In this document: in pieces, positions 2,703 through 45,463 of the stretch
Numbering within the stretch: the first letter of the stretch is position 1
Layout of the letters: each line of letters starts with the position of its first letter
Virus record (IMG/VR): IMGVR_UViG_3300046003_005119
Location: 1-62,259 of that record
Length of the DNA: 62,259 nucleotides
Strand: one strand, 5' to 3'
Origin: a virus
Taxonomy: Duplodnaviria > Caudoviricetes
Position numbers and translations under genes: made by a program
The notes under the pieces: generated by a model
Databases searched by the model: none
Told to the model about the DNA's origin: nothing
The model's input: only the letters and a program-made list of their open reading frames with translations

Positions 2703-3671
2703 TCACTTGATCCTCCGGATGATATATTCACGACAGGCTTTCTGCCAGTCAGTTGCGGCGCATTCTCCAATGGCTTTGAGAGCCATCTCGTGATCCTTGG
2801 CTTTGTGCCAGTTCCACGCTCGAAGCATCGGCAGCGCCACTCGCTTGAAGAACTTGTCGCGATAGCCGATGACTTCTCCATGCTGAACAAACATCTCGAG
2901 ATCTGCCATCCAGTCCTCGATCGGACCGTTCACCATCGGATACGGCGAAACTTCGCCGCTTTCGTATTCAGCTGAAGCAATCGGAAGAGACAAGAGACTG
3001 GAGTGCTTCTCGAAGGTCGACATATATGCGTGGAAGTTTGTTGAGATCTGTTCATAGATGCCGACCTCAACACCGATCCACGCCGCGACGACTTCCTGCA
3101 TCATCGAGAAGTGAACAGCGTTCGCACCGTATGCACCCCAGATCATGTCGTTGGAACGGTTGAAGACATACATGTCCAGCCGACCGTCGACGATACGGAA
3201 GTTCACCATCTGGTTGCAAGGAAAGTCCTTGCCTTCACGACCGAGATCAGAAGCAGGGTCCCACATTCCCATCGATACACGACGGTCATCCGGGTTCTCC
3301 TTCAGAAGCATGGCACAAGTCGCCAACTGATCGACACCGAACCACTCGCGCCAGCGATGACCGTAGGCTCCATGGAAGGTGACACCATCATCGCTGTAGT
3401 TCGCGATCGATCCGTTGAATCGACTGATCCACTCAACATCGTTGCGACCAGCAATCATCCAGAGGCCTTCCATAAAGTGGAAGAACGGATTTGCATCCCT
3501 TTCAGGGAAGAACATCACTCGCTCTTTGGGCTTCTTGTAGACTGTAGTCACAGGAGTCCTGAACACCCTGACAGGACCGTTGCGGCTGTCGCGAAGAATG
3601 CCTTCGTCACGAACAGTGTGAAGCCCAAGGAGAAGGGCTTCAGAGACGTTGCGGACAGTGATCACTCTCAT
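2703..3671 (-). CDS. Thymidylate synthase-fold enzyme, probable dUMP hydroxymethylase
   Basis: GAYGHRWR, PDDRR, catalytic PC (DFPCN), RSND..WG...N with Asn at the dUMP-specificity position, NFHAY; neighbours are modification genes. Confidence 0.85.
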   Translation of the reverse strand: MRVITVRNVSEALLLGLHTVRDEGILRDSRNGPVRVFRTPVTTVYKKPKERVMFFPERDANPFFHFMEGLWMIAGRNDVEWISRFNGSIANYSDDGVTFHGAYGHRWREWFGVDQLATCAMLLKENPDDRRVSMGMWDPASDLGREGKDFPCNQMVNFRIVDGRLDMYVFNRSNDMIWGAYGANAVHFSMMQEVVAAWIGVEVGIYEQISTNFHAYMSTFEKHSSLLSLPIASAEYESGEVSPYPMVNGPIEDWMADLEMFVQHGEVIGYRDKFFKRVALPMLRAWNWHKAKDHEMALKAIGECAATDWQKACREYIIRRIK

Positions 3672-4954
3672 TATGCGAGAACTCCAAAGTGGTTGAACAT
3701 GAGATCCGAGTATTTCTCTCGGATGGATGGATCGTCAGTTCCACGAATCGTGTCGATGGAACCGAAGGCGAGATCGATGACTCGCTGAGCGACGATCTCA
3801 CGGTCGAACATCGGCAGAAGCTGAAGCGCAGCCTCGCGATAATTCGCGGCGAGTTGGTGGCTCATTTCGCCAACCTCGAGCACGAGATTCGCGTATTGCT
3901 CCGGATCGATATGACCATCAGGGATATCCCAGTAGTGAACACCAGCCTCGAAGATCGAATCACCCATTCCCATCGGTCTCGCAATGGGAATAGCACCATG
4001 GATCATAGCATCAACGACAACGCGGTTCCAATGACCGCCGACAGCGGCATATTTGCGCGACCAAGAAGGATCGACAAGAGCGCGGGCGCTTCCGAGCATC
4101 TCTTCCACTTTGGGCGTGTTCCAGTAGCCCTCATGAACCATACCATTCTCAAGAGCAACTTCCCAGAAGCGACCGCCCTGACCACGGCTATCAATCGGAT
4201 GGTAATACTCAGGCTTGCACTTGTCCTCGCTCGTCATGTATTGATACTCGATGCCGAGACCTGCGACATGCCGATATTCGTCGTCACGCTTGGGCGGCAT
4301 GTAGGCGATTGCCTCGATCAACTCGTGAGCATGTTTCCACGCCTTGAAGGTCTGCATGTTGACGAAGCCACGCTTGCGTTCTGCCCAAGAAGCGACCTTC
4401 CGCACTGGGTTGAACTGAGGATTCACGACCAGCGCCCGAGGTGTCGTCAGAAAGTTGGCTCCGTTCAGAGCGCAGTCATGAACGCAGGCAATACCAGAAA
4501 GCTGATCTTGGATCGCCAGAATATGCGGCGCTCCTGACTTTACGTTTCCGTCGTGAACGAAAGCAATCTGCTTGATCGATCTCGGCAGATCATACAGATT
4601 GGTCCATTCATGGTTTCCGAGGTTATCCTTGTTTTTGCTCGGAACAGGAACCGTCCAGATGATAAGGTCATAATCGACCATAATCTGTTTCGCGGTTGCC
4701 AGCGCAGCCGATCCCTTGTAGGCAATCCGGTCATTCCGACGGAAGTTCCAGCCCTTGCCTTGGTCGTGTGGGATTCCACTTGGGCCGACGATCCAGTCAC
4801 CAGTCTTGTTTTGTTCGTGAGCCTTAATGGCATAGACGAACTGTTTGAGATGGACTGTGTGTCCAAGATCTTTCAATCCACCGATCAACTGCTCAGTGTG
4901 ATTGATGATTCCACCAAGGTCCATGACCTGATGCAATGCAACGAGAATTCGCAT
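3671..4954 (-). CDS. GT-B fold glycosyltransferase (probable DNA-base glycosyltransferase)
   Basis: MRILVAL...GGI..H...L...L..LGHTV N-terminus; AFVHD; LVDPS...VVVDAMIHGAIPIA C-terminal GT4-like motif. Confidence 0.8.
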   Translation of the reverse strand: MRILVALHQVMDLGGIINHTEQLIGGLKDLGHTVHLKQFVYAIKAHEQNKTGDWIVGPSGIPHDQGKGWNFRRNDRIAYKGSAALATAKQIMVDYDLIIWTVPVPSKNKDNLGNHEWTNLYDLPRSIKQIAFVHDGNVKSGAPHILAIQDQLSGIACVHDCALNGANFLTTPRALVVNPQFNPVRKVASWAERKRGFVNMQTFKAWKHAHELIEAIAYMPPKRDDEYRHVAGLGIEYQYMTSEDKCKPEYYHPIDSRGQGGRFWEVALENGMVHEGYWNTPKVEEMLGSARALVDPSWSRKYAAVGGHWNRVVVDAMIHGAIPIARPMGMGDSIFEAGVHYWDIPDGHIDPEQYANLVLEVGEMSHQLAANYREAALQLLPMFDREIVAQRVIDLAFGSIDTIRGTDDPSIREKYSDLMFNHFGVLA

Positions 4955-5012: not shown

Positions 5013-5201
5013 CTACTTATCTCTGCTTGCACTACTTTTGATTGCGAAGATAAGCATGATTAAAGGTGTGAAGCCTGAGAATAGGAACATAAAGAACGCT
5101 ACACTCAGGCTCAGATGTTTCTTCTTGATATCATACCAGAAGAGACTCAGCATGAACCACATTGACCACCAGACAATGAGCCAGAAGAGCCAGTTAGGCA
5201 T
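5013..5201 (-). CDS. Small two-TM membrane protein
   Basis: MPNWLFWLIVWWSMWF...; start moved to ATG 5201 to avoid a long overlap. Confidence 0.55.
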   Translation of the reverse strand: MPNWLFWLIVWWSMWFMLSLFWYDIKKKHLSLSVAFFMFLFSGFTPLIMLIFAIKSSASRDK

Positions 5202-6084
5202 GATACTTACTTCTGGGTTTCCCCTGACCAAGACGAACTCGTTCATACTTATCGAACTCGCAGAACGCGAATTGGATATCAGTGGGAACAAGTCTCCCGT
5301 CGTGAGTCCACAGCATCTCTTGCCATTCGCCGATCTTCCGAATTATGTCCATGGATCGTTGTTCAGTGAGAGGAGTTGCAGAGTCATCGCCCAAGAGACG
5401 AGCAGCACCACGACGAGCTCCAGGACCGATAGGAGTCCAGCTATCCCAGTCGACGGGATAAGAGAACGTCCCGTCCTTGGAATGCTCGAACGTCTCGTTC
5501 CAGAAACCAGTGTAGGTCGTGTCGAGCAGAACTTCCTTGGTCATGAAACCAGTTCCACCGAAGCCGCCGATCATACGCATCCGATCAGAGACTTCTTCCC
5601 AGCTTTGGGTCTCTTCAGCAATCTTCACGAGTTGCGGTGTCTTCGCGTGAAGATCCTTGAGAAAGTAGTCGACAACCACTTCCTGCTTCGGAGCGGAGAT
5701 ACCTTGGTTTGTGATGACATATGCTCCGGTAAACACTCGTTCGCGCGAAGCCAGACGTGATTCTGCCAAGTCCTTAATGCCATCAAAGTCGAACGTGTCA
5801 TACTGTTGCCATCCGATCGCTTGTGCAAATTCCCAAGTGCCGAAGTATCTGTATAGCGCACAGTTCATGAGGATGGTGCGCTTGTCATCGTTGAAGTTCG
5901 GCCCATAGAAGAGCCGACGAAGCTGATCGCTCGTGCGATCGTGATGTCTCCTCACGTTTGTGAATTTGTAAGTCCGTAGGATCTCGTCATCAGTCCACGG
6001 AAATGAAAAACCCGCCTCCTTCCGGAGGCGGATCTCTTCGCGTTCGTTGAGATAATCGTAGAACGCTTGCGCCCTGAGGCCCAT
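5194..6084 (-). CDS. aGPT-Pplase1 family (5-hmdU DNA kinase helical-domain-like) protein
   Basis: ERE.IR.RKE.G..FPWTDDEILRTYKFTNVRR..DR, FTGAY, GPGARRG, CEFDKYER...G.G.PR motifs of the family. Confidence 0.8.
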   Translation of the reverse strand: MGLRAQAFYDYLNEREEIRLRKEAGFSFPWTDDEILRTYKFTNVRRHHDRTSDQLRRLFYGPNFNDDKRTILMNCALYRYFGTWEFAQAIGWQQYDTFDFDGIKDLAESRLASRERVFTGAYVITNQGISAPKQEVVVDYFLKDLHAKTPQLVKIAEETQSWEEVSDRMRMIGGFGGTGFMTKEVLLDTTYTGFWNETFEHSKDGTFSYPVDWDSWTPIGPGARRGAARLLGDDSATPLTEQRSMDIIRKIGEWQEMLWTHDGRLVPTDIQFAFCEFDKYERVRLGQGKPRSKYHA

Positions 6085-6086
6085 GA

Positions 6087-6872
6087 TTAGGCCGAGGCCA
6101 CGGGTTCAGCCGGAGCAGCGGCTTTCGCCTCAGCTTTGGCTTTCGCTTCGGCTTCCTTGGCAGCTTTCTTCGCAGCCAACTCGGCGTCACGGGCGACCTT
6201 GGCAGCAGCACGTTCGGCGGCCTTGGTTTCCTTCGACAGATCAGGGTCGACCAGATTGTGCTTCTTATACCAAGCAGCGCGCCGCTCAGTATACTCCGCA
6301 TCGGTCGGCTCGGTCACCTTCATGATGCCCTTGTCGGTCCAGTTGTAGACGTCCCACGGCTCGGTGCCATCGGCCTCGATCACGTCGACGATGGTCATGC
6401 CGTCCTTGTAGTTCGCCCAACGGTGAGCGCGACCGTGGTCGGTGCCGTTGTGTTCGCCGATCTTCGAAATGGTCGAGAACATCTTGCGGGTCGGACGCTT
6501 GACCAGTTGCGGCATGGACGATTTCGCGGGCTTGCGTTCTTTGGGTTCCTTCGGAGCCTTGGGTTCCTTCGGAGCCTTGGGAGCTTTCGCAGGCTTGCCA
6601 GCAGCGACGGGAGCACCAGCATCAGCGGCCTCGGCGGCGGAAGTCGACTCGAACCGCTCCAGAGCCTTCCAGGTCTGCTCGACGGCAGCGTCGTGATCTT
6701 TGAAACCGCGAATGCTGGCGACGCCGAGATTGGTCGCGACGAGGTTCCGCAATTCGAGCAGCTTGTCGTCGGCGAGAGCGGCGAGAGCGGCTTGGGTGTA
6801 GGAATTGCCGAGGAAGGCAATGGTCTTATCGGTCATGATTGACTCCATTTCTACGTTTATTGGAAGCGCCAT
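6087..6872 (-). CDS. Hypothetical protein with KAPKEP repeats and Lys/Ala-rich C-terminus
   Basis: Strong codon bias, GGAGG RBS, own promoter; low-complexity basic segments. Confidence 0.75.
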   Translation of the reverse strand: MALPINVEMESIMTDKTIAFLGNSYTQAALAALADDKLLELRNLVATNLGVASIRGFKDHDAAVEQTWKALERFESTSAAEAADAGAPVAAGKPAKAPKAPKEPKAPKEPKERKPAKSSMPQLVKRPTRKMFSTISKIGEHNGTDHGRAHRWANYKDGMTIVDVIEADGTEPWDVYNWTDKGIMKVTEPTDAEYTERRAAWYKKHNLVDPDLSKETKAAERAAAKVARDAELAAKKAAKEAEAKAKAEAKAAAPAEPVASA

Positions 6873-6951: not shown

Positions 6952-8793
6952 CTAGTCGGCGCAGGCTCCCGTCTTACGACCATTTTCATCCAAGGCGCAG
7001 GCTCCGCTAAACCCATCTTCTTCCTGCATCGCGACGACTTTCGCTTGCTCCTCGTCGCGAGCTTCGTTTCCATCGACAGCCTTGATCGGCTCATCGTAGT
7101 TTCCAGCGGGACGATAAGTCGTGCATCCCTTGGCTCCGTTCTCCCAAGCCATGCGATACAGATCCTTGAATTCGTCGAACTTGAAGTTCGCTGGAACGTT
7201 GCATGTTTTGGAAACGGCGCTGTCAACATGACGCTGAGCCGTGCAGAGAACTGCGACATGCTCAGCAGCAGTGATGCCGCCATTGGCAACTGTCCGACCG
7301 CGCGTATCGAGATAGGCCACGCCATAGTCAGGAATGATGACAGTCTTCATGCCATCTTTCATGATCACGTTGCGTTTCTGCTCATAGGCGATGACAGGTT
7401 CAATTCCGGACGAGACGTTGTCTGCATAGAGCGAAATCGTTCCGGTCGGAGCAACCGAAGTCAAGTGTGAGTTGCGGATGCCATACTTGCGAATGAGAGC
7501 GATGGTATCTTCTTCGAGACCTTGAACATATTTCGATTTGAGGTATGCTTCCTGATCATAGAGCGGAAAGCTTCCCTTTTCCTTGGCAAGGAGAGCAGAT
7601 GCCTGATAGCACTTGTTCGCGATGAACCCCATCAAGCGATCTTGGAATTCGATGAACTCGGCAGTCCCATAGGGCAGCCCGAGTGCCTCGAGAGCATTGG
7701 CGAGACCAGTCACCCCGAGACCCATTCTCCTCTTCCTTTGGGCTTCCAGCTTCTGCTGAGGCAACGGATAACGGCTCCGATCGATGACGTTGTCCATAGC
7801 ACGAACGACCGGAGGGATATCCTTCGCGAGCAAGTCCCAGTCGAACGACCATTTCCCGTCGGCACCCTTGACGAGATACTTCACCACGTTGAACGAGCCC
7901 AAGAGGCAGGCTCCGTAGGGAGGGAGAGGCTGTTCGCCGCACGGGTTCGTCGCCGCAATCGTCTCGCAGTAATAGAGATTGTTCATGCGATTGATCTGAT
8001 CGATGAACAGAACTCCAGGTTCTGCCCAGTCGTAGGTTCCACGCATGATCATGTCCCAGAGTGCCTGAGCATCAACTTCGCGATAGTTGCGGCCACCGAA
8101 CTTCAGCATGAACGGACGCCCAGTGGAGACGCACTCCATCAGTTCGTCGGTAATGGCGATCGACATGTTGAAACCGCGCAGCGGACGAAGGTGCCACGGA
8201 ATCGAAGCATCGACAACCTGTTTCGCTCGAATGAATTTCTCGATATCAGGATGGTCACAGCGAAGAACCATCATCTGAGCTCCACGGCGATTTCCGGCCG
8301 AGGCCGTTGCACGACACACCATGTCGAAAATGCTGGCGAATGCAAGAGGCCCATCTGTGACTGACTGAACGCCTTTGATCATGTCCCCAGAAGGGCGCAA
8401 CGTAGAGAAATCATAGCCGACGCCGCCACCTTGGCGCATGGTGATAGCGGCCAGCTTCGCCACGTCCATGATACTCTCAGAGTTGAAGTAGCCATTGCCA
8501 CGCTCGATCATGCGCTCTGCTTCTGTCGGTCCATCGGTGAAGCTGTCATGAATCGTCGGCATGACGAAGCAGTTGTAGAGCGTCACGTTCTTGAGCGATC
8601 CTGCTCCGGCCTGAACTCTTCCGGGAGGCATGAATCTTTGATCCATGGTGATCTCACGAAAGTGCATGTAGTGTTCGTGACTGTCCTGAAGAAATCCAGC
8701 GACTCGATTGGTAGCCTCCCTGTGGTTTTCATTTTCACCACGATATTTCTCTGCACCGATTGCATCACAATGAGGATTCTGAGGTCCAGACAT
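6952..8793 (-). CDS. nrdJ: Ribonucleotide reductase, class II (adenosylcobalamin-dependent)
   Basis: NCFV, GGGVGYDFS.LRP, RRGAQM, TNPCGEQPL, APTGTIS, SKTCN; no small subunit gene seen. Start at 8793 or 8814. Confidence 0.85.
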   Translation of the reverse strand: MSGPQNPHCDAIGAEKYRGENENHREATNRVAGFLQDSHEHYMHFREITMDQRFMPPGRVQAGAGSLKNVTLYNCFVMPTIHDSFTDGPTEAERMIERGNGYFNSESIMDVAKLAAITMRQGGGVGYDFSTLRPSGDMIKGVQSVTDGPLAFASIFDMVCRATASAGNRRGAQMMVLRCDHPDIEKFIRAKQVVDASIPWHLRPLRGFNMSIAITDELMECVSTGRPFMLKFGGRNYREVDAQALWDMIMRGTYDWAEPGVLFIDQINRMNNLYYCETIAATNPCGEQPLPPYGACLLGSFNVVKYLVKGADGKWSFDWDLLAKDIPPVVRAMDNVIDRSRYPLPQQKLEAQRKRRMGLGVTGLANALEALGLPYGTAEFIEFQDRLMGFIANKCYQASALLAKEKGSFPLYDQEAYLKSKYVQGLEEDTIALIRKYGIRNSHLTSVAPTGTISLYADNVSSGIEPVIAYEQKRNVIMKDGMKTVIIPDYGVAYLDTRGRTVANGGITAAEHVAVLCTAQRHVDSAVSKTCNVPANFKFDEFKDLYRMAWENGAKGCTTYRPAGNYDEPIKAVDGNEARDEEQAKVVAMQEEDGFSGACALDENGRKTGACAD

Positions 8794-11064: not shown

Positions 11065-11141
11065 TGGCGATCCTGGGAGGAATCGAACCCCCGACCCGCC
11101 GCTTAGAAGGCGGCTGCTCTATCCGGCTGAGCTACAGAATC
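11065..11141 (-). tRNA. trnR-UCU: tRNA-Arg(UCU)
   Basis: GATTCTG/CAGGATC acceptor stem, TAGCTCAG..GGATAGAGC D arm, anticodon loop CT-TCT-AA, GGTTCGATTCC T arm, encoded CCA. Confidence 0.95.
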
Positions 11142-13592: not shown

Positions 13593-14078
13593 TTACTCCT
13601 GTGACAATTCGACCCTTGCATAGAAAGAGAATTCTCTTTGCAGCGCTCTTGACGCTCCTTGATAGGCAGCTTCTGCCTCTCCAACTGTGTCGAACAACCC
13701 AAGGAAGATGACCTGACCTTTCCACTGTATGCGAGAATCGAACTTTCCCTGACGAGCATAGACTCCTTTAGGGAAATCTCTGTTCATTCGTGGTCTGCGA
13801 TTCATATTGTTTTGTTCGGGTGTGACTATCCTCAAATTCTCTATAGTTTCATTCTTACGGTTTCCATCTTTGTGATCTAACCACTCATCGCGTTCAGAAG
13901 GGAAGTATCCATGATGCAGAAACCAGACTATGTGGTGAGAGTAGATTCTCTTACCATCAACCCTGATCTGACTTCCAGGACTAACCTTCTGGCCTGATTT
14001 AGCTGGACCTCTATCCTTCTTCCAGAACAACCCACGAGAGTGAACATACTCCAGAAATTCGCTGATGATCTCTGACAT
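13593..14078 (-). CDS. HNH homing endonuclease with AP2-like C-terminal domain
   Basis: DHKDGNRKNETIENLR...NNMN; KGVY...IFLGLFDTVGEAEAAY. Confidence 0.85.
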   Translation of the reverse strand: MSEIISEFLEYVHSRGLFWKKDRGPAKSGQKVSPGSQIRVDGKRIYSHHIVWFLHHGYFPSERDEWLDHKDGNRKNETIENLRIVTPEQNNMNRRPRMNRDFPKGVYARQGKFDSRIQWKGQVIFLGLFDTVGEAEAAYQGASRALQREFSFYARVELSQE

Positions 14079-21986: not shown

Positions 21987-24900
21987 TATCCACCAAACGC
22001 ATTCTTCATCTGTCCACCTCTTCTGCGAGCGTCGATGATTGCGCTCTTGGTCTTATCAACGATAGCCGGAACAGCTTTCATGATCTCAGAACGAATTGCA
22101 GTTACGTCGACGCCAGACCCACTGACATGAATGTCATTGTTCACGATGATAGTGTCGCCACCAGACCCAGAGGCCTGAACTCCAAGCTTCCCGTTCGCAC
22201 CTCTAGTGAGAGGCATGATCGCCTCTGGGCCAGCTTCACCCATGATGCCGAGGCCAGTGTTGGTCTTGAACATAGTCGCTCCGGAAACGACGCCACCATT
22301 GGCGAACTTCCGCAGCTGAGAACCTTGGCTCCAGACACCACCATCAGCTTGTTTAGTGAACGCCCCAGAAATAAGACCAATGAGACCAGTTCCAGTTCCA
22401 GTGGAGGCGTTGAAAGAACCAACCAGCCTCTGCACAACGAGAACTCGATAAAGTTCCTTGATGATCTCGTAAGCCATCTTCTTGAAAGCTTCTCCCATCG
22501 TCTGAGTTCCCTCGACGATTGACATGAAGGCTTCTTCCATGGAAGATTTGATTTTGTCAGAAATCGATTGCATCTGAGCGATTGCTTCTTTCTTCGCGTT
22601 CAGAGCCTCAATCTCCTTAGTGACATTATCGATCTCCAGCTGAGAGTATTTATCACGATCAGCACTCAGTGCAGTCTCAACCTGTCTTTGGGCTTCAGAC
22701 AACCCAAGGAGACGAGTTTCAAGCGCAATCTGTTCGCGGAGTTTCGCGAGAGCATCTTCGGATGCACCACCTCCACCACCTGCTCCATCAGGAAGAAGTG
22801 AATCCTGAAAGTCCTTGAGATCCTTCGCGTCCTTAGCCTTGTTGAAGAGAGCCAGGAAGCCCTCTTTAGCTTTCGCGACGAAGCCACTGTTCGCAAATCT
22901 GCTGAGAGCATTTGAAATGCCAGTTGTGATTCCTCGCAGAGCGCCGAAGGAAGAACTCAAGACAGCCAGTAGCTCTCTTGCTTTATCGATTGCAGGCTGA
23001 ATCATAGCAGCCAACATCTTGATCTTTCCTCCAAGAGTGTCAGTCGCTCCGCCAGCAGCAGCGATGACTCTCTCTAGAGCCTGAACTCTGGACAGCTGGA
23101 TAACCATCTGATCAGAAACGCTTTCAGCGATCTTGAGACTTTTGATAGTCGTCAAGAGATTTTCCATCTCAGTTCTTTGTCTCTGCTTCAGGACCTCGAT
23201 TGAATTTTCTCCGTATATTACAGACAGCCTGAGGATCTCAGCTTTCTCTCTCATCGGAGTGAGAATTTCCATCGCCTTCTGGTATTCAGCATCACTTTCA
23301 GCACGAGTTTGTCCCATGAGCTGAAGTTGCTGTCCCCACGTTCCGACCATGAACTGTCTCAGCTCACGCATTCTGAACATCTGTTCATTCTGACGGATCA
23401 GTTCTTGGACAATCATCTTTTCTTGGTTCAGGGCGAGCTGAGCTTTCATCGCGAGATCTGTGGCAGAAGCTTGAAGGCTCACTATCTCAGATTCAGTCGA
23501 TCCAGACCCAAGACCAGAGGAAGGATCGAACGTATAAGGATTCGCAGCCGCGGACTCTACATTCGCCTGTGCGACGTCTCTGATCGATGCCGCCAGAGCT
23601 CTGTTCTCTGCCGAGAGAGCTTTTGCCGTAGAGAGAGCCTTTGCTCCTCCTCCTGAGGCATACTCAGCCATCGAATCGTTCAGTTGCTCTTGGACTGATT
23701 TCAATTCCTCAGTTGCATCAGTCTGCAAAGACATGTAGAGCTGAACCGCAAGAAGACCAGTCAGAAGAATTCCGATAGGATTCGCCATGATCGTAGCGAA
23801 CAGAGCCATGAATGCGCCACGAACAGCACCAATAGCGACAGCAACTCCAGGAAGGACAGCGCGGAGCCGGACGAACCACCCTAGCGCCGCTGCCTGTGCA
23901 GCCGCTAGGCGCGTGGTTGCAACGGCAAGCCCCGTAGCCTGCGCCGTAGCCTGTGCAGCCGCTAGGCGCGCAGCCTGTGCGGCCTGCGCGCCAAATGCAG
24001 CCTGTGCAGCCCGTGCAGCCGCTAGGCGCGCAGCCTGTGCTGTCTCAACACCCTCAACAATGGAAAGTTTCTGAGAAAGATTGATCAAATTCTGCTTCGC
24101 GATCGCAAGGTTCACGAATTGACCAGTCTGAGCGTTTCTGGCAACGCCATTTCTGATCACATACTGTGACTCGAGAACTTGCTGCTGCAAGAGCAGTTTC
24201 TTCTGGGCGATGAGAGCAAGATTCTGCTGAAGTTCAGCCTGACGACTCGCGTATGCTGCGAGAGTTGTTCTGGTCTCTATGTTAGCTGCGGTTACGACAG
24301 CAGCAGATTTTGCGACGACCGCTGTCCGTATAGCGATCAGCCTCTGCAGAACTTCAGTCTGCTTTATTTGGGCAGCTTTCAATCCTGCAACGTAAGCCAT
24401 GACAGCGTGAATAGCTTTTCCTGCGAATACACCAGCCAGAGTCACGCCGACAGCAGTCGCGGTGACCATGATTCCTTTCAGGTTATCAGCGATACTGATG
24501 ATCGCCATAGAAACCTTTTCAGAGAAACCGGTTGCATCATCGAATGCGTCCAGGAGGGCCAAGAAGGAATCTCGAACAATACCAAGAGACTGGCCAATCG
24601 TCGGAACGAGTTTCGCGAAGTCCTTATCAATTCCAGCGGCAGAGTTTCTGAAAGCTGCGAGGATTTGATCAGCCGTGATCTTTCCTTCAGTTCCAAGCTG
24701 ACGGAGTTCACCACGGGTCACACCGAATTGCTTCGCGATGATGTCCGCAACCAGAGGAAGCTGTTCCAGAATTGAACGAAGTTCATCGCCGCCCAAGCGG
24801 TTTGACGAGATACCTTGCCCAAGCTGAATGAGCGCAGCGTTCGCTTCTCGAGCGTTCGCACCAGATAGAACAGCAGCCTTGCTCACAGACTCAGTAAATC

Positions 24901-35366: not shown

Positions 35367-36905
35367 TCAATAATGTCCAGAAGTTGAGCCAGTTCCGCCC
35401 ATATTCGAGATATGACGAACGAAATATCTCGTTTCGTCAGCGATGTGATCTTCGGCATCCGTGTTCACGTCGTCCTGATCTTTCTCATCTCTGGGCAAAA
35501 CTGGCACCGTTTCGATGAATGACAGACATTCGTCGAAGATGAACATTCCAGGCTGTTCACGAGGATACATGAGAAGGACATCCTCTTTAGTCGGATGTTT
35601 TCTCATCGTCGGATGAGCATTTTTCAGCCTCTGACGCATCTGGTTCCAGCCTGTCACACGCGATCCAGGACGTTTATCAGCCGGAGCCCACTGAATTCCA
35701 GGATACTTGTTTCCATCATCCAATCTGACTTTGACTTTCATGTCTGTCGCGATGCAGTTGCCGTTCTCAGCGGCGAAAATCTGCGAGTCAGCGACTCCGC
35801 CCTTCACTCGACACCAGTCTTCACCTGGAATTCTCCAGTTCCACGCCAGCTCTTTCTCGACAATTCCAGCCGCGATGTCAGTCGCGAGCATTCGGAGACC
35901 CTCGTTGGGCTTTCCTGTCGAGCCATACCATTCTTTCACACGGAAAGAGTCTCCCTTGATCGTCGAGCGCCATGATCCATCACGAAGCTGAACGTCTTCT
36001 CCATTCGAAATGGCCCACCAGCCCACAGAGAAAGGCTTCGATTCTCCCCAGTCGAAGGAGCGGATGATACGCCAATTCAACGGTATCTCAAAGTTTGAGA
36101 TTACATTAAATCGAGGTTCCCATACATCGTCGAACATACCGCCAGCGACGATGTCCCATGACCCTTCGAGCCATGCTTTCTTCTCCGCCGCGTTTCTCGC
36201 TGACGCTGCAATCTTCTGTTTGTATTCAGGATCGGCCTCGAGCAGAGCCGTGTTCTCGTCGATATGCGAGTGGATGCTCAGGCGAGGAGGCTCGGAGTTC
36301 CCTTCTTCATCTTTCAGATCGCGACGGACGATCATGTTCATGCTGTTGGGCTTGAACCTGTGTTTCACCCAGTTGTGACCGGGACCATATGGGTTCGTCG
36401 TCGCGCGAACCATACGAGGCATTCCCTTTGTCGACGAACGACAACACGAGAACATCCTCTTGTAGCCCTCATCATTCGCCCAGTTGCACAACTCTTCCCA
36501 ACCAATCCAGGGATATTCGTGACCGTGATAGTTCCAATAGTCGTCAGCTTTCATGAACTGGCGAAGCAGAAGCTGTTCTCCTCCAGGAAACGTCCAGACA
36601 TGCTCGGAGTTGTTGAATTTCGCTTCCGGCCAGATCTGAGGGATCCACTTTTTCGTTTTCGAGATAATATCCGTCAATTGTTTATACGTTTGACGGAATA
36701 GAATTCCCTTCCAGCCAGCCCCGTATCCCTTTCCGACGTGCATACAGAAGCTCATAATCAATGAGTCTGTCTTGCCGCCTCCGCGAGTTCCTTCGAACAA
36801 GACTTCGAAGATTGGGTGAGCTGCGAGGAAGGCCTCTTGGCTTCCTCGCATGGGTCGCCAAATCACGTTCTTGGGGAATTGCATACTCATTTCAGCACAT
36901 ACCAT
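35367..36905 (-). CDS. terL: Terminase large subunit
   Basis: GTRGGGKT, WEEL, TTNPYGPGH.WVK, RSFDWG, EDHIADE.RY. Start probably 36887 or 36881. Confidence 0.95.
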   Translation of the reverse strand: MVCAEMSMQFPKNVIWRPMRGSQEAFLAAHPIFEVLFEGTRGGGKTDSLIMSFCMHVGKGYGAGWKGILFRQTYKQLTDIISKTKKWIPQIWPEAKFNNSEHVWTFPGGEQLLLRQFMKADDYWNYHGHEYPWIGWEELCNWANDEGYKRMFSCCRSSTKGMPRMVRATTNPYGPGHNWVKHRFKPNSMNMIVRRDLKDEEGNSEPPRLSIHSHIDENTALLEADPEYKQKIAASARNAAEKKAWLEGSWDIVAGGMFDDVWEPRFNVISNFEIPLNWRIIRSFDWGESKPFSVGWWAISNGEDVQLRDGSWRSTIKGDSFRVKEWYGSTGKPNEGLRMLATDIAAGIVEKELAWNWRIPGEDWCRVKGGVADSQIFAAENGNCIATDMKVKVRLDDGNKYPGIQWAPADKRPGSRVTGWNQMRQRLKNAHPTMRKHPTKEDVLLMYPREQPGMFIFDECLSFIETVPVLPRDEKDQDDVNTDAEDHIADETRYFVRHISNMGGTGSTSGHY

Positions 36906-37246
36906 CCATCAAAGGTCGACAGCCCAAGACGAGAGGGATGAGGATCATGAACGATCGTTCCGGAAGAGCGACACCATACTACAGCATGACGTATTCCGCG
37001 TGGAGAGACTCCAGCACGAATTACGAAATCTGGCCAATGTGGTTTCGCTCTGGGATAATAGTCGAGGTTCTTCGAAGTTCTTTGTTCCAGAACGTCAAAG
37101 AACTCGTGATTCCAGCCACCACCTTCTGCGATCGGATGCGGAAGATCGATATCCTCTCCGAGCAGAGTGTAGACACACGCTCTCATGCAGTCCCCGTATT
37201 GACCTCTCTCGTGGTCAGACAATACTTGCTGATCGAATGTCTTCAT
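36887..37246 (-). CDS. Hypothetical protein with papain-like Cys-His-Asp pattern
   Basis: GDCMRAC...HAVVW...VHDPHP. Confidence 0.65.
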   Translation of the reverse strand: MKTFDQQVLSDHERGQYGDCMRACVYTLLGEDIDLPHPIAEGGGWNHEFFDVLEQRTSKNLDYYPRAKPHWPDFVIRAGVSPRGIRHAVVWCRSSGTIVHDPHPSRLGLSTFDGWYVLK

Positions 37247-37572
37247 GATATCTGCAACCTCGCTTGAAGGACTGTGATCTCATGTCTCGTGAGATTACAC
37301 CCGCGTTCGATTCGATAGGTGCTCAGCCTCAGACCACGAATTTGTTCGAGCCATCCCGATTCCGTTTCTATGAAGCGGAATCGCGTTCCATCTTTGAACC
37401 GACCTCGGCGCGTTCCTAACTGCAGATCGGAGAATTCGTCTTGATTACGAATTCTCCAATCCACTATTCCTCCTACAGGAATCACGATCAGAAGATCATA
37501 CATATATTCTACCTCCGGTCGGAGCCGACACACATAGTGTCTATATGAACCCAGAAGGACACGCGGGCGCAC
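37243..37572 (-). CDS. Hypothetical protein
   Basis: ORF coupled to the downstream gene; start uncertain. Confidence 0.45.
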   Translation of the reverse strand: MRPRVLLGSYRHYVCRLRPEVEYMYDLLIVIPVGGIVDWRIRNQDEFSDLQLGTRRGRFKDGTRFRFIETESGWLEQIRGLRLSTYRIERGCNLTRHEITVLQARLQIS

Positions 37573-37752
37573 CGTGGATCACGAAAATTCAGTTACACTC
37601 ATTCTCGCTGCTCACGCAAGTGCAGCTTCTCATGAGTCTCGTGAGGCTCGTCGATTCGTTTCGAATTTTGGTTTCTTGTTTCTCGGTTCTTGATCTTCGT
37701 AGGATTTCGAATGATGTGGGTGAAGGGGCGGGGAACGGGACCGCCAGCCATA

Positions 37753-37820
37753 CGCCCCACGCGCAAGCCGTGCGTGGGGCGGGGTGGTAGCGGTTGCCTG
37801 CCCCGCAACGGGGGCAGGCG
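37753..37820 (-). terminator. Two GC-rich hairpins downstream of the Ala-rich gene
   Basis: CGCCCCACGC/GCGTGGGGCG and GCCTGCCCC/GGGGCAGGC stems. Confidence 0.55.
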
Positions 37821-37832
37821 GTTGCTTTGGCG

Positions 37833-38315
37833 CTATGCCTTGGCAGGCGCAGGCGCGGGCGCGGCAGCGGTTGCCACAGGCGCGGCAGCGGCAGCGGCAG
37901 CGGTTGCCACAGGCACAAGCCAAGCCTGCGCGGCGGCCCATTGCGGCATGTTGTGGCGCTGCCAGCCCCCATTTGGCGGGGCAAGCGTGGGGCTTGCGGC
38001 TGCACTGGCCACCAGCGCGGCGCGGTATTGCGCCAAGGTAAAGCCGTTGGGCTGCACCTTGGCAAGCGCCTGTGCCACTTGGCAGGCAAAAGCGCGGTGG
38101 CCACGCTGCCCCACAGGCCAGCCAGCGCTTGCGGCTGCACTGTAGGGCATATAGGTGTAAAGTGCCGCGCCAATGGCCACAGCAACGGGCGCGGCGGTTG
38201 CGGTTGCAACGGGCGCGGCGGGCGCGGGCGCGGTTGCGGTTGCGGTTGCAACGGGCGCGGGGGCAGTAGCCTTGCCAGCGGTTGCGGTTGCGGTGTTTTT
38301 GTTAGCTTGTGCCAT
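37833..38315 (-). CDS. Ala/Thr/Pro-rich protein with no Asp or Glu (160 aa)
   Basis: Preceded by the AGGCTACCA leader and a promoter, followed by hairpins; lies wholly inside the GA/TC-free island. Confidence 0.7.
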   Translation of the reverse strand: MAQANKNTATATAGKATAPAPVATATATAPAPAAPVATATAAPVAVAIGAALYTYMPYSAAASAGWPVGQRGHRAFACQVAQALAKVQPNGFTLAQYRAALVASAAASPTLAPPNGGWQRHNMPQWAAAQAWLVPVATAAAAAAAPVATAAAPAPAPAKA

Positions 38316-38369
38316 TGTGGTAGCCTTTGGTTACAGGGTAGCAGCACCATTGCCGCTATGCCCTGCCCC

Positions 38370-38399
38370 TATATAGCGCCATAGCGCGGCAAAAGCCAA
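38370..38399 (-). promoter_or_regulatory. Promoter of the Ala-rich gene
   Basis: TTGGCT-N18-TATATA. Confidence 0.5.
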
Positions 38400-38524
38400 G
38401 TAACATGTTGTTACAGATTGTAACAATTTGTTACCGGAAATGCAGTAACGTTTTGTTGCAGGCTGTAACAATTTGTTACCGGAAATGCAGTAACGTTTTG
38501 TTACAGCCTGTAACAATTTGTTAC
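38400..38524. repeat. Array of six GTAAC-N5-GTTAC palindromes (45-bp tandem period)
   Basis: Boxes start at 38400, 38420, 38445 (one mismatch), 38465, 38490, 38510. Confidence 0.9.
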
Positions 38525-38693
38525 CGGAGACGAGAGACCGAACGAGAGACCTACCGACGAAGATGAAGATGACGAGTGAGATCTCCTCTGTCGGTTCTGT
38601 CGTATCGGTTCATGACTGTCGGTTCGATGATGAAGAAGATGATGAGTGTCGAGCCCAAGAAGAAAGAGCCTCAATCGGCTCTTTCTTGTCGGT

Positions 38694-38882
38694 TCAGTCG
38701 TAGACGAACGACTCGAGGTAAGTGTCAATCACATCGCCATCTTTCGAAACGAACTCTGTCACCTCATACCCGTGGTGGTTCACATTAGTCCGCTTCGTGA
38801 GACCCTCTATCTCTGCTGGGACAGAGCGATAGATCGTGACATGACCTCGCCGATTGGTGCGAATATACATCTTATCGCTCAT
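38694..38882 (-). CDS. Small early protein
   Basis: ATGA-coupled to the upstream ORF; GGAGG RBS. Confidence 0.6.
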   Translation of the reverse strand: MSDKMYIRTNRRGHVTIYRSVPAEIEGLTKRTNVNHHGYEVTEFVSKDGDVIDTYLESFVYD

Positions 38883-39088
38883 GCCCGACCCTCCGCACGA
38901 ATGGCCTGACGCACGGCCAGCGGCGTCTCAACGCCGTGGGCGAAGGCGGGGCGGCAGACTTGGATGACGCCGCCGCACTGTGAAAAGCGACGAGTCAACG
39001 CGAAGATCTGACGCTGGAGCGACTGACGGTCGTCGGCCAGACGACCAGTGAACTCTGCGCGCTCTTTATTCCAAGGATTGATCTGCAT
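38879..39088 (-). CDS. Small early protein
   Basis: AGGCTACCAAATG leader. Confidence 0.65.
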   Translation of the reverse strand: MQINPWNKERAEFTGRLADDRQSLQRQIFALTRRFSQCGGVIQVCRPAFAHGVETPLAVRQAIRAEGRA

Positions 39089-39286
39089 TTGGTAGCCTTT
39101 CGGTTTGGGTTAAGTTGCCGTAAGACCATGTTATTACACAGAAATTTAAGAAGCAACTCATTTATATCCAATCCTCCGGACTCATATCGGAAGAGGCTCC
39201 CGATGAAGAAGATGAAGAAGATGAAGATGACGAGTCTCTCATCCAGATCTTCTTCATCATCTTCATCTTCTGTATGCTCTCAGACA

Positions 39287-39316
39287 ACAGAAGAGGTGGA
39301 ATTCCACCTCTTCTGT
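39287..39316. repeat. Perfect 30-bp palindrome / terminator-like hairpin
   Basis: ACAGAAGAGGTGGAA-TTCCACCTCTTCTGT. Confidence 0.8.
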
Positions 39317-39325
39317 CGGCCCTTT

Positions 39326-39592
39326 CTACGAGGTCAGGACGATATCGGCGAGATACGACAGACCGTCGCAGATATCTTGGGTGGTAAAGATTTCGGCGCC
39401 GCTGACGGTGTGTGCGATGACCAAGCCGTTCTCCATGATGAACAACTGGCCCGAGACTTCGTAGCCTTCTTCAAAGTGACGCAGCCACACCATGGATTCG
39501 TCGATGATTTCAAAACGAACTTCGGGGATGACCTCATCACAGTGAAACTTGATGTCGGCGATTTCGGCGGGGGTGAACTTGCGATTGAGCAT
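39326..39592 (-). CDS. Small acidic early protein
   Basis: Leader motif before ATG 39592 (MLNRKFTPAEIADI). Confidence 0.65.
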   Translation of the reverse strand: MLNRKFTPAEIADIKFHCDEVIPEVRFEIIDESMVWLRHFEEGYEVSGQLFIMENGLVIAHTVSGAEIFTTQDICDGLSYLADIVLTS

Positions 39593-39749
39593 AGCTGGTA
39601 GCCTTTCTTGGGTTGCCTTGCCCTTACAGTATAGCCCAAAGAGGGTGGAGAGTGTAGCACTATGAATCGTGGTCTTCGTGGCCGGAAGATGATGAAGATC
39701 TCGTCGGAAGAGGCCGACGAGCATAGAGAAATCCCTATGCTCTGTCGGT

Positions 39750-39965
39750 TCAGGCTAGCGCCCCTGCAACTGCTTTTTCAAAGGCTTCCAGCTTTTCCAC
39801 CACTTCGACCATGTTCGTGCATGTCGGGCTCATGGTCATCTCGATCGTCCCCCAAAAGTTCATCAACTTCCGCGTGGGGTGGTGGTATTGCGCCACAAAT
39901 TCTTCTTCCGGATCCTGCCCTTCGCGGTAGTAAAGCAGGTAATCGCCAGTGTCTTTCGTCAGCAT
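39750..39965 (-). CDS. Small early protein
   Basis: Own promoter and leader motif. Confidence 0.65.
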   Translation of the reverse strand: MLTKDTGDYLLYYREGQDPEEEFVAQYHHPTRKLMNFWGTIEMTMSPTCTNMVEVVEKLEAFEKAVAGALA

Positions 39966-40000
39966 TTGGTAGCCCTTTCATTTGGTAGCCTTGCCCTTAC

Positions 40001-40029
40001 AGTATGGCAGTTAGAAATCTGAGAAGCAA
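40001..40029 (-). promoter_or_regulatory. Early sigma70-like promoter (copy 1)
   Basis: TTGCTT-N17-CATACT; same sequence at 40413-40441. Confidence 0.75.
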
Positions 40030-40068
40030 TTCATATATGTCCAGTCTTCTTCATCTATATGAGATACC

Positions 40069-40103
40069 GATGAAGATGAAGATGAAGATGAAGATGAAGA
40101 TGA
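40069..40103 (+). repeat. (GATGAA)n intergenic microsatellite
   Basis: Five full units plus GATGA; related tracts in neighbouring spacers. Confidence 0.85.
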
Positions 40104-40144
40104 TTCCATCGGAGGAGGCCGACGAGTCCCCACACTCTGTCGGC

Positions 40145-40378
40145 TCACTCGGCTCTTAGAATGAGCTTCATGAGCTCATACAGATCGTCACAGAACGTAA
40201 CGAACCCGAGCTCGCTGATATAGATATGCTGCTCTCCGCTGATGTAGCCGACGTCTCCCATATCTGTGAAGACTTTGTTATCCTCTGTATCAGCGATACC
40301 GTTACCGAGTGTGCAGATATACATGGAGATGTCCTCCAGTTCTGCTTCGGTGAAGTCACGCGGCTCATAGATTTTCAT
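40145..40378 (-). CDS. Small acidic early protein
   Basis: Own promoter and leader motif. Confidence 0.65.
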   Translation of the reverse strand: MKIYEPRDFTEAELEDISMYICTLGNGIADTEDNKVFTDMGDVGYISGEQHIYISELGFVTFCDDLYELMKLILRAE

Positions 40379-40412
40379 TTGGTAGCCCTTTCATTGGTAG
40401 CCTTGTCCTTAC

Positions 40413-40441
40413 AGTATGGCAGTTAGAAATCTGAGAAGCAA
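40413..40441 (-). promoter_or_regulatory. Early sigma70-like promoter (copy 2)
   Basis: TTGCTT-N17-CATACT. Confidence 0.75.
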
Positions 40442-40603
40442 GTCATGTATGTCAGGTCTTCTTCTCTCTCGTCCCGTTCTTCTTCATCATCTTCTATATC
40501 AGAAATCGAGGATGAAGATGATGAAGAAGATGAAGATAAAGAAGATCGCCATACCTGTGAAGATACGGCGATCGACTGACTCTGTCGGTTCAGTTCTGTC
40601 GGT

Positions 40604-41293
40604 TCAGAAGGGATCGTCGTCCTCTGTCGGCTCGTTGGAGAGCCCAAGAGGAGTAGGAGTGACATCCTTCGCTTGAGAGAATCGCTTCTCCCAATCATCG
40701 ATACTCGTCATTTCAGCTGGAGCGACGAGAACACCGCCAGAGTGATTGACAGCGATTTCCTGCTTGTCACGGTATCCGGCGTCGTGCTTCTTCAATTCAA
40801 GTTCGATCAGTCGTATCGGGTAGACTGTCTCTCTGGAGACGAGGCCTCCATTGCGATCGAAACTCTCCTTGACTGTCCCGTTGAAGACGAGGTCTTGATG
40901 GTGACCGATCAGTTTGTCCTTGTATGCAGTTTCGGCGAGAAGCATCGCTTCAGCGAAGTCTTCATCTTCCTCCAACGCTTTCCGGACTGTCTGAGGTGAG
41001 ACACCGGCGGCTGCTGCGCTCTCTCCCATCCGTCCCCATTTCATGAATTCGTTGAGGAATCGGCCCTTCGCAGCTTCGTCAAAACGATTGCGAGCCATGC
41101 GAACGACTGTCCGCCATTCACCGGTTTCGGGATCCTGTATATCCATCGCCTCGACCCTCGATCTACGAGACAACAGAGAGCGAGGAGCCTGACGAGCGCG
41201 GAAAGCATCATCATCATATCGGTCTCTGTAGGACTTCGGGTCTTCATCGTCGCTCATAATTATCTCTCCATCTATCCGCGTCAACTTGATCAA
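40604..41293 (-). CDS. terS: Probable terminase small subunit
   Basis: HTH FL......G....SAAAAGVS.QTV......DEDF.EA; C-terminal N.SGGVLVAP. Likely start 41257. Promoter TTGCTA-N17-TAAACT at 41311-41339. Confidence 0.65.
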   Translation of the reverse strand: MIKLTRIDGEIIMSDDEDPKSYRDRYDDDAFRARQAPRSLLSRRSRVEAMDIQDPETGEWRTVVRMARNRFDEAAKGRFLNEFMKWGRMGESAAAAGVSPQTVRKALEEDEDFAEAMLLAETAYKDKLIGHHQDLVFNGTVKESFDRNGGLVSRETVYPIRLIELELKKHDAGYRDKQEIAVNHSGGVLVAPAEMTSIDDWEKRFSQAKDVTPTPLGLSNEPTEDDDPF

Positions 41294-44651: not shown

Positions 44652-44951
44652 TCAGCCTGTCGCCTTTTCCCAGTGCTCATAGTTGAACATCTCAGGGATA
44701 TAGTTCTCAAGGATGAGAATCGTCTCAACTCGCTGGTGCTTCCCTCTGTCTGGGCGAAACAGGACGCCGACGCTCAACTTCAGTTCACCCTCCATGAGAG
44801 GTTGAGAGAGCTTCGCTCCTGGGATATGGTCACCGAGGTCAGGGCCGACATAGATTCCCATGCACCTGAAAGGCTTGTGCCACTCAGGAGGATTGGGATT
44901 CCAGAAACCGACTCGCAATCCGCTTGTCACTCTCATTGCTTTTGGACCCAT
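44652..44951 (-). CDS. Hypothetical protein
   Basis: ORF in the operon; GAGG RBS. Confidence 0.5.
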   Translation of the reverse strand: MGPKAMRVTSGLRVGFWNPNPPEWHKPFRCMGIYVGPDLGDHIPGAKLSQPLMEGELKLSVGVLFRPDRGKHQRVETILILENYIPEMFNYEHWEKATG

Positions 44952-45463
44952 GATGGTGCGCCTCTTCTTGTCCAGGTCGCGGGTCGCTTGTCAGTCTTCC
45001 ATCTCGCCAACAGATATTCTTGGTAGGATACTGGAACAGGAAGCCATGTGAAGTCAAGACCGAGACCATCGTTTCTCGCCGAATTTTGAAATGGTAACAG
45101 ATCGCCAGACGGGAGACAATCATAGAATCTGTGGATATACTGGGTTCGAACGCTGCTGCTGTGAAAGGAGTCGAAGCGATAGGTCCATTCGTGTCCTAGG
45201 GCATAGGAATGTTTGATAGTCCAGTAGAAGTTGCGTTTCGAACCACGAACCCAGACAGCGCAGGGATGATTTGCGTGTGTGAGTTTGCAAATCATGCCTT
45301 CACCGACGTGATCATCGATAGGATCAATGAAGTATCCGTTCCAATGAAAATGCAGAGCAGATGACAGAAGCTGGTTCGTCTCCATCAGCATCTTGCCGAG
45401 CCTCTTATCGTCAAGAGCCTCGGCGCACTCCTTTGGGCATGTCGACGTGATGAACAGGTTCAT
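44933..45463 (-). CDS. Pyrimidine-dimer DNA glycosylase-like (endonuclease V family) protein
   Basis: MNLFIT..CP..CA..LDDKRL.KML.E..QLLS; HANHPC.VW; W..R..P.W. Confidence 0.75.
   Translation of the reverse strand: MNLFITSTCPKECAEALDDKRLGKMLMETNQLLSSALHFHWNGYFIDPIDDHVGEGMICKLTHANHPCAVWVRGSKRNFYWTIKHSYALGHEWTYRFDSFHSSSVRTQYIHRFYDCLPSGDLLPFQNSARNDGLGLDFTWLPVPVSYQEYLLARWKTDKRPATWTRRGAPSWVQKQ

Follow-up and report, generated by a model that had tools for sequence, protein, structure and literature searches.

A conserved gene cassette free of GA and TC dinucleotides in the genome of a YuA/M6-like phage

The GA/TC-free cassette

The DNA analysed here, referred to below as the window, is the whole 62,259-base IMG/VR record IMGVR_UViG_3300046003_005119 (CheckV completeness 98%), a virus of the Caudoviricetes, and its subject is a gene cassette upstream of the large terminase gene in which the dinucleotides GA and TC do not occur (Table 1). 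An earlier note on this DNA, made from its letters, had described a GA/TC-free stretch with GA/TC-dense flanks that holds a self-contained unit of promoter, 160-amino-acid open reading frame (ORF) and two hairpins. No GA or TC starts within the island, which is bounded by a GA at 37739 and a GA at 38416 (a gap of 677), and both flanks are indeed dense in the two words. The ORF lies on the minus strand as described, the unit is self-contained and all genes in the region are co-directional. Both hairpins were found; the region that forms them has a minimum free energy of -62.5 kcal/mol, against -49.1+-3.2 for shuffles (z -4.2), and similar GGGGCAGG hairpins stand 3' of the ORF in relatives.

A promoter is plausible and can be read as a sigma-70-like candidate, TTGGCT-N18-TATATA. 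Its element TTGGCTTTTGCC has its sole exact match in the genome here, and is kept upstream of the homologous ORF in five relatives (loci L004, L005, L009, L010 and L041). Around it lie seven GTAAC-N5-GTTAC palindromes, the seventh of which, with one mismatch, covers the ribosome-binding region. All seven matches in the genome fall in the cassette (chance mean 0.39; 0/100 shuffles reached seven), and they are likely operator sites. Directly upstream of the cassette, in the minus-strand sense, is a block of about 170 bp that is hyper-rich in GA/TC, with 5-7 of these words per 20 bp; it is found in relatives too, and comparable blocks precede each small gene between the small terminase gene and the island, up to 40.8 kb.

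Two further features of the relatives' cassettes were observed. Between the GA/TC-rich block and the promoter there are lineage-specific tandem repeats, often palindromic (L005, 77-282; L007, ~7040-7100; L039; L001), which may be operators co-evolving with a regulator. A second small ORF, hydrophobic and about 30 amino acids long, lies inside the GA/TC-free zone of L004, L005, L006/L007, L009, L010 and L039; most relatives have it and the window does not.

Table 1. Positions of the island, its cassette and the other features discussed
Feature	Position	Strand	Basis or remark
GA/TC-free island	37740-38415	.	0 GA+TC vs 73 expected; 67.7% GC vs genome 51.7%
160-amino-acid ORF	37833-38315	-	inside island; no Asp or Glu
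Two GC-rich hairpins after stop codon	37796-37819, 37740-37794	-	no U tract
Sigma-70-like promoter candidate	38370-38399	-	TTGGCT (38399-38394), N18, TATATA (38375-38370), read from sequence
Seven GTAAC-N5-GTTAC palindromes	38320-38524	.	six in three 45-bp direct repeats (38400-38534; family D2)
GA/TC-hyper-rich block	38527-38700	.	(GAAGAT)n tracts and CTCTGTCGGTTCA repeats
Large terminase subunit, synteny anchor	35367-36905	-	ORF list and similarity search
Small terminase subunit	40604-41293	-	phrog_4044, 2.4e-22
Thymidylate-synthase homologue	2703-3671	-	PF00303, E 4.3e-20
GT1-like protein	3671-4954	-	PF00534, E 1.7e-4, sub-threshold (21.6 bits vs 26.4 cut-off)
5-Hydroxymethyldeoxyuridine DNA kinase (5-HMUDK)	5194-6084	-	PF18723, E 1.8e-36, profile positions 5-277 of 281
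Second GA/TC-free patch, 170 bp	23873-24043	-	inside tape-measure gene
Third GA/TC-free patch, 122 bp	1580-1702	-	C-terminal Ala/Gly/Pro-rich part of DUF3310 gene

The avoidance acts on nucleic acid

The island contains 255 G, 203 C, 116 T and 103 A, a composition that predicts 38.7 GA and 34.7 TC; the GA+TC count averaged 73.5 over 2000 mononucleotide shuffles and never fell below 52. The crude null of about 1e-39 given in the earlier note is arithmetically right, (7/8)^677 being about 5e-40. That note had also proposed window frequencies and odds ratios as a check, and these agree with it: the genome averages 35.4 GA+TC per 200 bp (standard deviation 6.3), and the odds ratios of GA and TC are 1.47 and 1.37. 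Chance alone would give this genome a longest gap of about 48 bp, and the gaps observed are 677, 170, 122 and then 58 bp. Among the ten double-strand dinucleotide steps, GA/TC is the only one with outlier gaps in the window genome and in three related complete genomes (G001-G003), and neither Pseudomonas phage M6 nor lambda has an outlier gap for any of the ten.

When the island ORF was resampled with genome codon usage, 33.4+-4.2 GA+TC were expected and the minimum in 20,000 samples was 17, while shuffling its own synonymous codons within the ORF left 10.8 at codon junctions and never fewer than 2; none is observed. Both words are also missing from the island's 193 non-coding bases. Because of these three results, we conclude that the avoidance acts at the level of nucleic acid and is not a by-product of protein composition. 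The island observation is confirmed and is stronger than the earlier note had stated. Among the 50 ORFs of the genome the island ORF alone stands at 0.00/0.00 of its GA/TC expectation; both ratios lie between 0.70 and 1.43 in the other 49, bar a TC ratio of 0.25 in a doubtful 71-amino-acid ORF. That ORF (39750-39965, minus strand) has 3 TC vs 12 expected with a normal GA count (24 vs 21), and may be spurious or may carry another strand-specific bias.

Avoidance of a TTC protospacer-adjacent motif was rejected, since the purge covers every NTC context in the island and not TTC alone; the CA/TG step is present 115 times. TC-to-TT hypermutation of the APOBEC or DddA-like kind was rejected as well, since the island is GC-rich and, allowing for the ban, shows no rise in AA (23 vs about 25) and a slight one in TT (38 vs about 28).

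Conservation and selection

At the same site, upstream of the terminase genes, a GA/TC-poor island is also present in IMG/VR contigs with 75-80% identical terminases, and each island holds a homologue of the ORF that is 36-44% identical. The longest GA/TC-free runs among the loci are 851, 785 (L005), 765, 711, 677 (window) and 648 bp (L009), and L004, L010, L006/7/14 and L001 have several shorter runs. In L005 the GA/TC-free zone reaches about 350 bp upstream of the ATG. Both words stand at or below 0.15 of expectation in 10 of 19 distinct loci, sense-strand GA in 14/19 and sense-strand TC in 10/19, ratios whose expectations were normalised per protein with the codon usage of the window genome. 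No extended motif was found around the residual TC of partly purged relatives.

Strain variation points the same way. A strain from another study (run X3) differs from the window by 33 listed substitutions in the island, a count that excludes 69 further differences in the same comparison, and none of the 33 creates a GA or a TC. The same types of substitution placed at random created a mean of 9.7 new words, and 0/10,000 simulations gave none. Variants of the island are present in runs X2-X4, all from other studies, and a contig of 27,349 bases from run X1, possibly itself the source sample, is identical to the window over 37300-38448. The same feature is joined to both flanks in independent contigs from IMG/VR and from metagenomes. 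These data show that selection maintains the absence of GA/TC. Misassembly and foreign insertion, either of which the earlier note had named as fatal to its proposal, are excluded together with chance because relatives and strains from other studies carry the island.

Strand asymmetry

In the partly purged lineages sense-strand GA, which is TC on the template, is always more depleted than sense-strand TC. The ratios for GA and TC are 0.00 vs 0.41 in L007, 0.07 vs 0.41 in L001 and 0.14 vs 0.81 in L040, and L066 has 0 GA where 15.4 are expected and 25 TC where 27.4 are expected. Stretches free of sense-strand GA reach 664-798 bases, and in L066 such a stretch of at least 663 bases has TC at normal density. 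This asymmetry points to a process in which a single strand is read, namely transcription. In published work, E. coli RNA polymerase transcribes templates containing 5-hydroxymethyluracil (5-hmU) at about 350% of the level on natural DNA, and after phosphorylation by 5-HMUDK this drops to 37% of natural DNA and 10% of the hmU template (PMC6457204); transcription is inhibited by bulky groups in the major groove (PMC6457204; PMC4838386).

GA/TC in the rest of the genome

The enrichment of the remaining genome in GA and TC, which the earlier note had remarked on, exceeds what codon usage and protein account for. At codon junctions, with the protein and codon usage held fixed, GA occurs 829 times vs 569.5 expected (z 19.2) and TC 700 times vs 425.6 (z 19.1), and these are the most enriched dinucleotides. 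A second genome-wide signal is the single tRNA gene, tRNA-Arg(TCT) (11065-11141, minus strand); it reads AGA, a GA-containing codon that 18 reference genes use 83 times.

The third and most telling genome-wide signal was seen in 6-bp palindromes, whose observed/expected ratios (O/E) against a maximal-order Markov expectation were compared across the ten dinucleotide steps by Mann-Whitney p. The genomes were the window (W), G001-G003 and two fragments that are 50-59% complete and lack the modification cluster described below (G004 and G005). Palindromes containing GA/TC occur at O/E 1.00 in W, 0.94 in G001, 0.92 in G002, 0.99 in G003, 0.83 in G004 and 0.85 in G005, and all other 6-bp palindromes are avoided, at 0.40-0.57 across the six genomes (0.50 in W). 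The exemption has p of 8e-6 in W, 7e-6 in G001, 8e-4 in G002, 2e-6 in G003, 1.6e-3 in G004 and 3.5e-4 in G005. GA/TC is the top-scoring of the ten steps in 6/6 genomes, although p values of about 1e-3 to 1e-2 were obtained for a few A/T-rich steps too. Palindromes of the clade genomes that contain TG/CA without TC/GA are avoided like the rest. Non-palindromic 6-mers stand at O/E 1.00-1.02 in W and G001-G003 and at up to 1.04 in M6 and lambda.

In the M6 control, for which palindromes were counted in the first 50 kb of the phage (L057), the exempt step is CA/TG (O/E 0.79 vs 0.35, p 7e-5). GA/TC palindromes are the most avoided class there (O/E 0.21, 11/16 absent) and TG/CA palindromes the least avoided (0.77), which suggests that the protective modification of M6 sits at TpG and not at TpC. 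Lambda showed no strong exempt step. In the window genome GTAC is absent (0 vs 87 expected by the Markov model and 242 by composition), as are 15 6-bp palindromes, none of which contains GA/TC; these absences suggest strong restriction pressure from the host. The simplest reading would be that this clade shields sites containing GA.TC, which removes the need to avoid them. The earlier note had taken TC/GA to be the target of the phage's modification enzymes, and here the idea of a protected step gains independent, though indirect, support from the palindromes. Within the island, 6-bp palindromes number 8 vs 24.3+-5.3 expected, and this stronger avoidance fits an island that would be unshielded.

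Genes for DNA modification

The large terminase shares 55-57% identity with its counterparts in YuA, M6-like Pseudomonas phages, the Bordetella CN1 group and Roseobacter RDJL3, and a search with it matched 652 records, every one below 60% identity. On this evidence the phage is a distant, uncultured, YuA/M6-like siphophage, and the sequencing runs that contain it come from a lake and other freshwater metagenomes. Its minus-strand modification cluster comprises a DUF3310 gene, an HD-like gene, the thymidylate-synthase homologue, the GT1-like protein, the kinase for 5-hydroxymethyldeoxyuridine (5-hmdU), an unknown gene and a ribonucleotide reductase, and a dCMP deaminase gene is also present in the genome. 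The synthase homologue is 52.7% identical to M6 gp58 and would act as a dUMP hydroxymethylase. An RSND...GAN active-site stretch is common to the two synthases; its residue numbering and its bearing on substrate choice follow the general background and PMC13326640. Kinase identity to the M6 counterpart is only 28.6%. G001-G003 have modification genes 56-70% identical to those of the window, the kinase among them.

As in M6, ViI, PhiW-14, SP10 and PaMx11, where 5-hmdU is made, phosphorylated by 5-HMUDK and then given its group by transfer, the synthase homologue, a PF18723 kinase, dCMP deaminase and ribonucleotide reductase are found in one cluster. By the presence of synthase and kinase genes the phage belongs to the 5-hmdU hypermodification pathway, as the earlier note had proposed. 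Unlike in M6, a GT1-like gene here replaces the transferase, PLP and radical-SAM genes. As for a group-transfer enzyme acting on phosphorylated 5-hmdU (aGPT-Pplase or amino-acid:DNA transferase), the neighbouring ORFs 6087-6872 and 3671-4954, among those scanned, had no Pfam or PHROG match bar the sub-threshold GT1 match.

Other chemistries were sought too. A GA context is a feature of some phages with 7-deazaguanine (DpdA) DNA modification; a search for TGT/DpdA (PF01702) gave 0 matches in the 98%-complete genome, all control genomes being matched. No classical DNA methyltransferase (N6/N4 or D12) was found in the genome. Because neither of these was found, the synthase is M6-like, the kinase is divergent and the GT1-like gene replaces the downstream enzymes of M6, the favoured candidate is a modification of thymine at TpC whose chemistry would differ from that in M6.

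On target sites, the earlier note had called dependence on dinucleotide context established for M6 and ViI, which overstates the literature. Lee 2018 gives the motifs of thymidine hypermodification as not known (PMC5889632), and 'TG or TC' is what Flodman 2019 inferred from resistant restriction sites, along with a remark that purified M6 kinase modifies TG (PMC6449724). The same papers describe the hypermodification as partial and thought to be context-dependent (PMC6449724, PMC5889632). The CA/TG exemption of M6 fits the TG remark of Flodman 2019 and not the suggestion of TC in that paper.

The island protein

The 160-residue island protein is basic and has no Asp and no Glu, because every codon for these residues contains GA. 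It consists of an Ala/Thr/Pro/Val-rich N-terminal tail, a globular core at about residues 50-136 and an Ala/Pro-rich C-terminal tail, and the core is predicted to form three or four helices (AF2 pLDDT 72-88). Neither Pfam nor PHROGs has a family for the ORF. A Foldseek search of the PDB returned nothing at E<=1e-3 (best E 5.3), BFVD gave one weak, unnamed structural match (E 1.9e-3), and the Atlas gave a weak, winged-helix-like look-alike in a Fur-family cluster (TM 0.51-0.54). We infer a possible DNA-binding role from the charge (0 Asp/Glu), the composition of the tails and the architecture.

A search of IMG/VR with the ORF of the window alone gave no match, and the family was reached by way of terminase synteny and then profiles. 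Of the 8000 candidates scored in the profile search, 159 proved to be relatives at E<=1e-3, all of them unnamed and none with a Pfam domain. Asp and Glu together number none in 78, one in 12, two or three in 17 and more in 13 of the 120 listed relatives. No match was found among cultured phages with the DNA of 37000-39500 or by tblastn with family member P0001, and M6 has no homologue of the protein.

Smaller GA/TC-free patches

The two shorter outlier gaps lie in other genes. The second patch codes for a stretch rich in Ala and Gln in which AQAARLAAA is repeated three times; 11.8 GA+TC are expected from the peptide, 0/20000 samples reach 0, and the patch is syntenic with GA/TC-free patches in G003 and G002. 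The third holds a long GGGCAGGG hairpin, and patches are found at the same place in G001, G002 and G003; the exact word GGGCAGGG is not significantly enriched in the genome (3 vs 0.86 expected; 6/100 shuffles reach 3). Internal repeats make the statistics of both patches less independent.

What the cassette may be kept free of

The explanation that we consider best, and to which we give an even chance, is that the cassette is inaccessible to modification and thereby still readable on mature DNA by a polymerase and an operator-binding regulator. GA.TC would be the step that is modified after replication in this clade. The modified base would most likely be the T of TpC, reached through the 5-hmdU kinase pathway, and a glycosyltransferase-like enzyme may add a further group. 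The genome would have been loaded with GA.TC, its modification shielding the restriction sites that contain the step, and selection would have purged a single cassette comprising operators, a promoter, an ORF for a basic protein of DNA-binding type and hairpins. Because it is purged of GA.TC, the thymines of the cassette would stay unmodified T or 5-hmU, and host-type RNA polymerase and an operator-binding regulator could read it even on fully modified DNA.

The absence of the two words, its conservation, the selection on it and the enrichment and palindrome exemption are direct observations; that the signal is modification, that it falls on a given base and that the gene would need to be free of it are steps beyond them. 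Several points weigh against the explanation. The modification context is drawn from sequence statistics, and these do not single out the modified one among the four bases of the GA.TC step. The palindrome test is not fully specific, since unmodified T7 exempts palindromes containing TA, AT and AA/TT, with p from 2.6e-4 (TA) to 2.3e-3. If TG were a target too, the island with its CA/TG steps would be heavily modified. The other 49 ORFs are rich in GA/TC and presumably expressed, so modification would not be an absolute block to transcription. A consensus promoter scan called no promoter at the cassette, leaving that part of the earlier note's description with the sequence reading and the conserved element, and the hairpins have no U tract. 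Some lineages can dispense with the purge, because in G004, G005 and L035-L037 the homologous gene keeps TC at 0.81-1.15 of expectation; G004 and G005 have the same genome signature, and L035-L037, which belong to the same family, are barely purged and encode 2-3 Asp+Glu each. The ratios of the 19 loci depend, as said, on codon usage borrowed from the window genome. Finally, both small patches encode Ala-rich linkers and neither is a transcription unit; every explanation considered here leaves them unaccounted for.

A more far-reaching form of this explanation, which we hold only tentatively, is that the clade hard-wires an epigenetic pattern. A bulky modification at every TpC would guard against restriction and damp host polymerase, and the conserved cassette for an H1-like DNA-binding protein, free of TpC on both strands, would alone be fully transcribable on mature DNA, e.g., right after injection. 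This form adds that the cost would be a protein alphabet without Asp and Glu, and that the small patches would be unmodified landing sites in tolerant linker-coding segments.

Alternatively, the constraint on the DNA could have nothing to do with modification: the cassette would exclude a protein that reads GA/TC (for instance a silencer, a nuclease of the phage or the basic product of the cassette itself) and so escape cutting, coating or repression. The hyper-rich blocks of CTCTGTCGGTTCA and (GAAGAT)n that adjoin the cassette and the neighbouring small genes do look like protein-binding arrays, and the island product is basic and acid-free with weak winged-helix-like look-alikes, e.g., in the Fur family. 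A dinucleotide, however, is too short for a binding site, and no extended motif surrounds the TC left in partly purged relatives; the exemption of GA/TC palindromes would also be left unexplained. We regard this alternative as unlikely.

Somewhat less probable still is a ban at the level of RNA, in which the mRNA would lack GA, and in some lineages also UC, to evade an endoribonuclease of phage or host or an RNA reader. Sense-strand GA is the most widely purged word among the 19 loci, the GA-free sense strand of L066 retains its TC, and, as the genes are co-directional, read-through could transcribe the whole free zone. Against this, the 10/19 loci that purge both words would have to avoid two unrelated RNA words where a single double-strand DNA step suffices, and the free zone extends over the predicted promoter and the upstream operator repeats, far upstream of the ATG in L005. 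The codon-junction enrichment and the palindrome exemption, two genome-wide signals on the same step, are at the level of DNA and are unexplained by an RNase, and a non-exhaustive scan of the ORFs recognised none as a ribonuclease gene.

It is very improbable that the island is a by-product of composition, i.e., a GC-rich, horizontally acquired moron for an Ala/Pro-rich, acid-free protein that rarely needs codons with GA or TC. The island does differ from the genome in GC content and has its own putative promoter and hairpins, the family is acid-poor even where its DNA is unpurged (L035-L037), and the smaller patches likewise encode Ala-rich linkers; the resampling and population tests nevertheless contradict this alternative, in that 33 GA+TC are expected given the protein and 10.8 with its own codons where none is observed, the non-coding flanks are free too and strain variation avoids creating the words. 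The presence of the cassette at one position in relatives with 75-80% identical terminases also argues that it is not a recent insert. An artefact of assembly or sequencing is hardly credible: in the run that best covers the sequence, contigs end within the 45-bp repeats (38448-38473), but the X1 contig spans the island unchanged, X2-X4 hold variants of it and independent contigs join it to both flanks.

Comparison with known systems

The cassette resembles restriction-site avoidance in phages, in which selection removes target words, and differs from it in that the purged word is a dinucleotide, the purge is total but local to one cassette, the word is enriched elsewhere and the enzyme presumed to be avoided would be the phage's own. 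In comparison with M6, the protected step would be GA/TC here and CA/TG there, and M6 has neither a step-free island nor the island protein. mRNAs without ACA, natural or engineered, survive the toxin ribonuclease MazF. Their coding sequences, like that of the island, lack a short word through the use of synonymous codons; unlike them, the cassette is purged on both strands in most lineages, its promoter and operator DNA is included and its amino-acid alphabet is restricted.

Base J, a glucosylated 5-hmU, stops transcription in kinetoplastids, and CpG islands are rich in the target of modification and are kept unmodified by trans-acting factors. By analogy only, these are likewise cases in which DNA modification is patterned along a genome and bears on transcription; unlike in CpG islands, the pattern here would be hard-wired by deletion of the target, and the analogy does not extend to homology. 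Ala/Lys/Pro repeats are carried by linker-histone-like and bacterial H1-like basic proteins, and relatives of the island protein have AAPAKV-type tails beside a small helical core; the family has no significant sequence or fold match, and the tails of the window protein are Lys-poor. The deviant GC content, the putative promoter and hairpins and the absence from M6 may recall a moron; its retention at the same position in those relatives whose contigs reach it would speak against one.

A local and total dinucleotide purge over a conserved gene cassette was not found in a search of the full-text literature, and the island may thus be a variant of target-site avoidance not previously found. If the modification-based explanation is true, this would be the first case, in the literature searched, in which a virus sets the pattern of modification on its DNA by removing the target from a single gene, and hypermodification would be linked to the control of transcription and not to restriction defence alone. 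For the sequence specificity of thymidine hypermodification, the genome with at least 18 related loci yields a testable prediction, namely that the 5-hmdU kinase of this clade would be specific for TpC and that of M6 for TpG. The dinucleotide that exempts palindromes is a simple read-out that could assign modification contexts to uncultured phages. Whatever the mechanism, a dinucleotide ban that forces a nearly acid-free protein family is an unusual case of selection at the nucleic-acid level on protein composition.

Neighbouring features

A distance of 3.7 kb separates the small terminase gene from the large one, and the space between them is occupied by small gene cassettes, the island among them. 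Intergenic modules in 38527-40820 consist of (GAAGAT)n, CTCTGTCGGTTCA repeats and a 71-nt repeat (39982-40052 and 40394-40464; 93% identical), and the translation-start context AAGGCTACCAnnATG is common to the neighbouring small cassettes and the island ORF. Elsewhere in the genome, an HNH endonuclease (PF13392) is encoded at 13593-14078 on the minus strand, and a pyrimidine-dimer DNA glycosylase-like protein (PF03013), of note in a phage whose pyrimidines would be modified, at 44933-45463 on the same strand.

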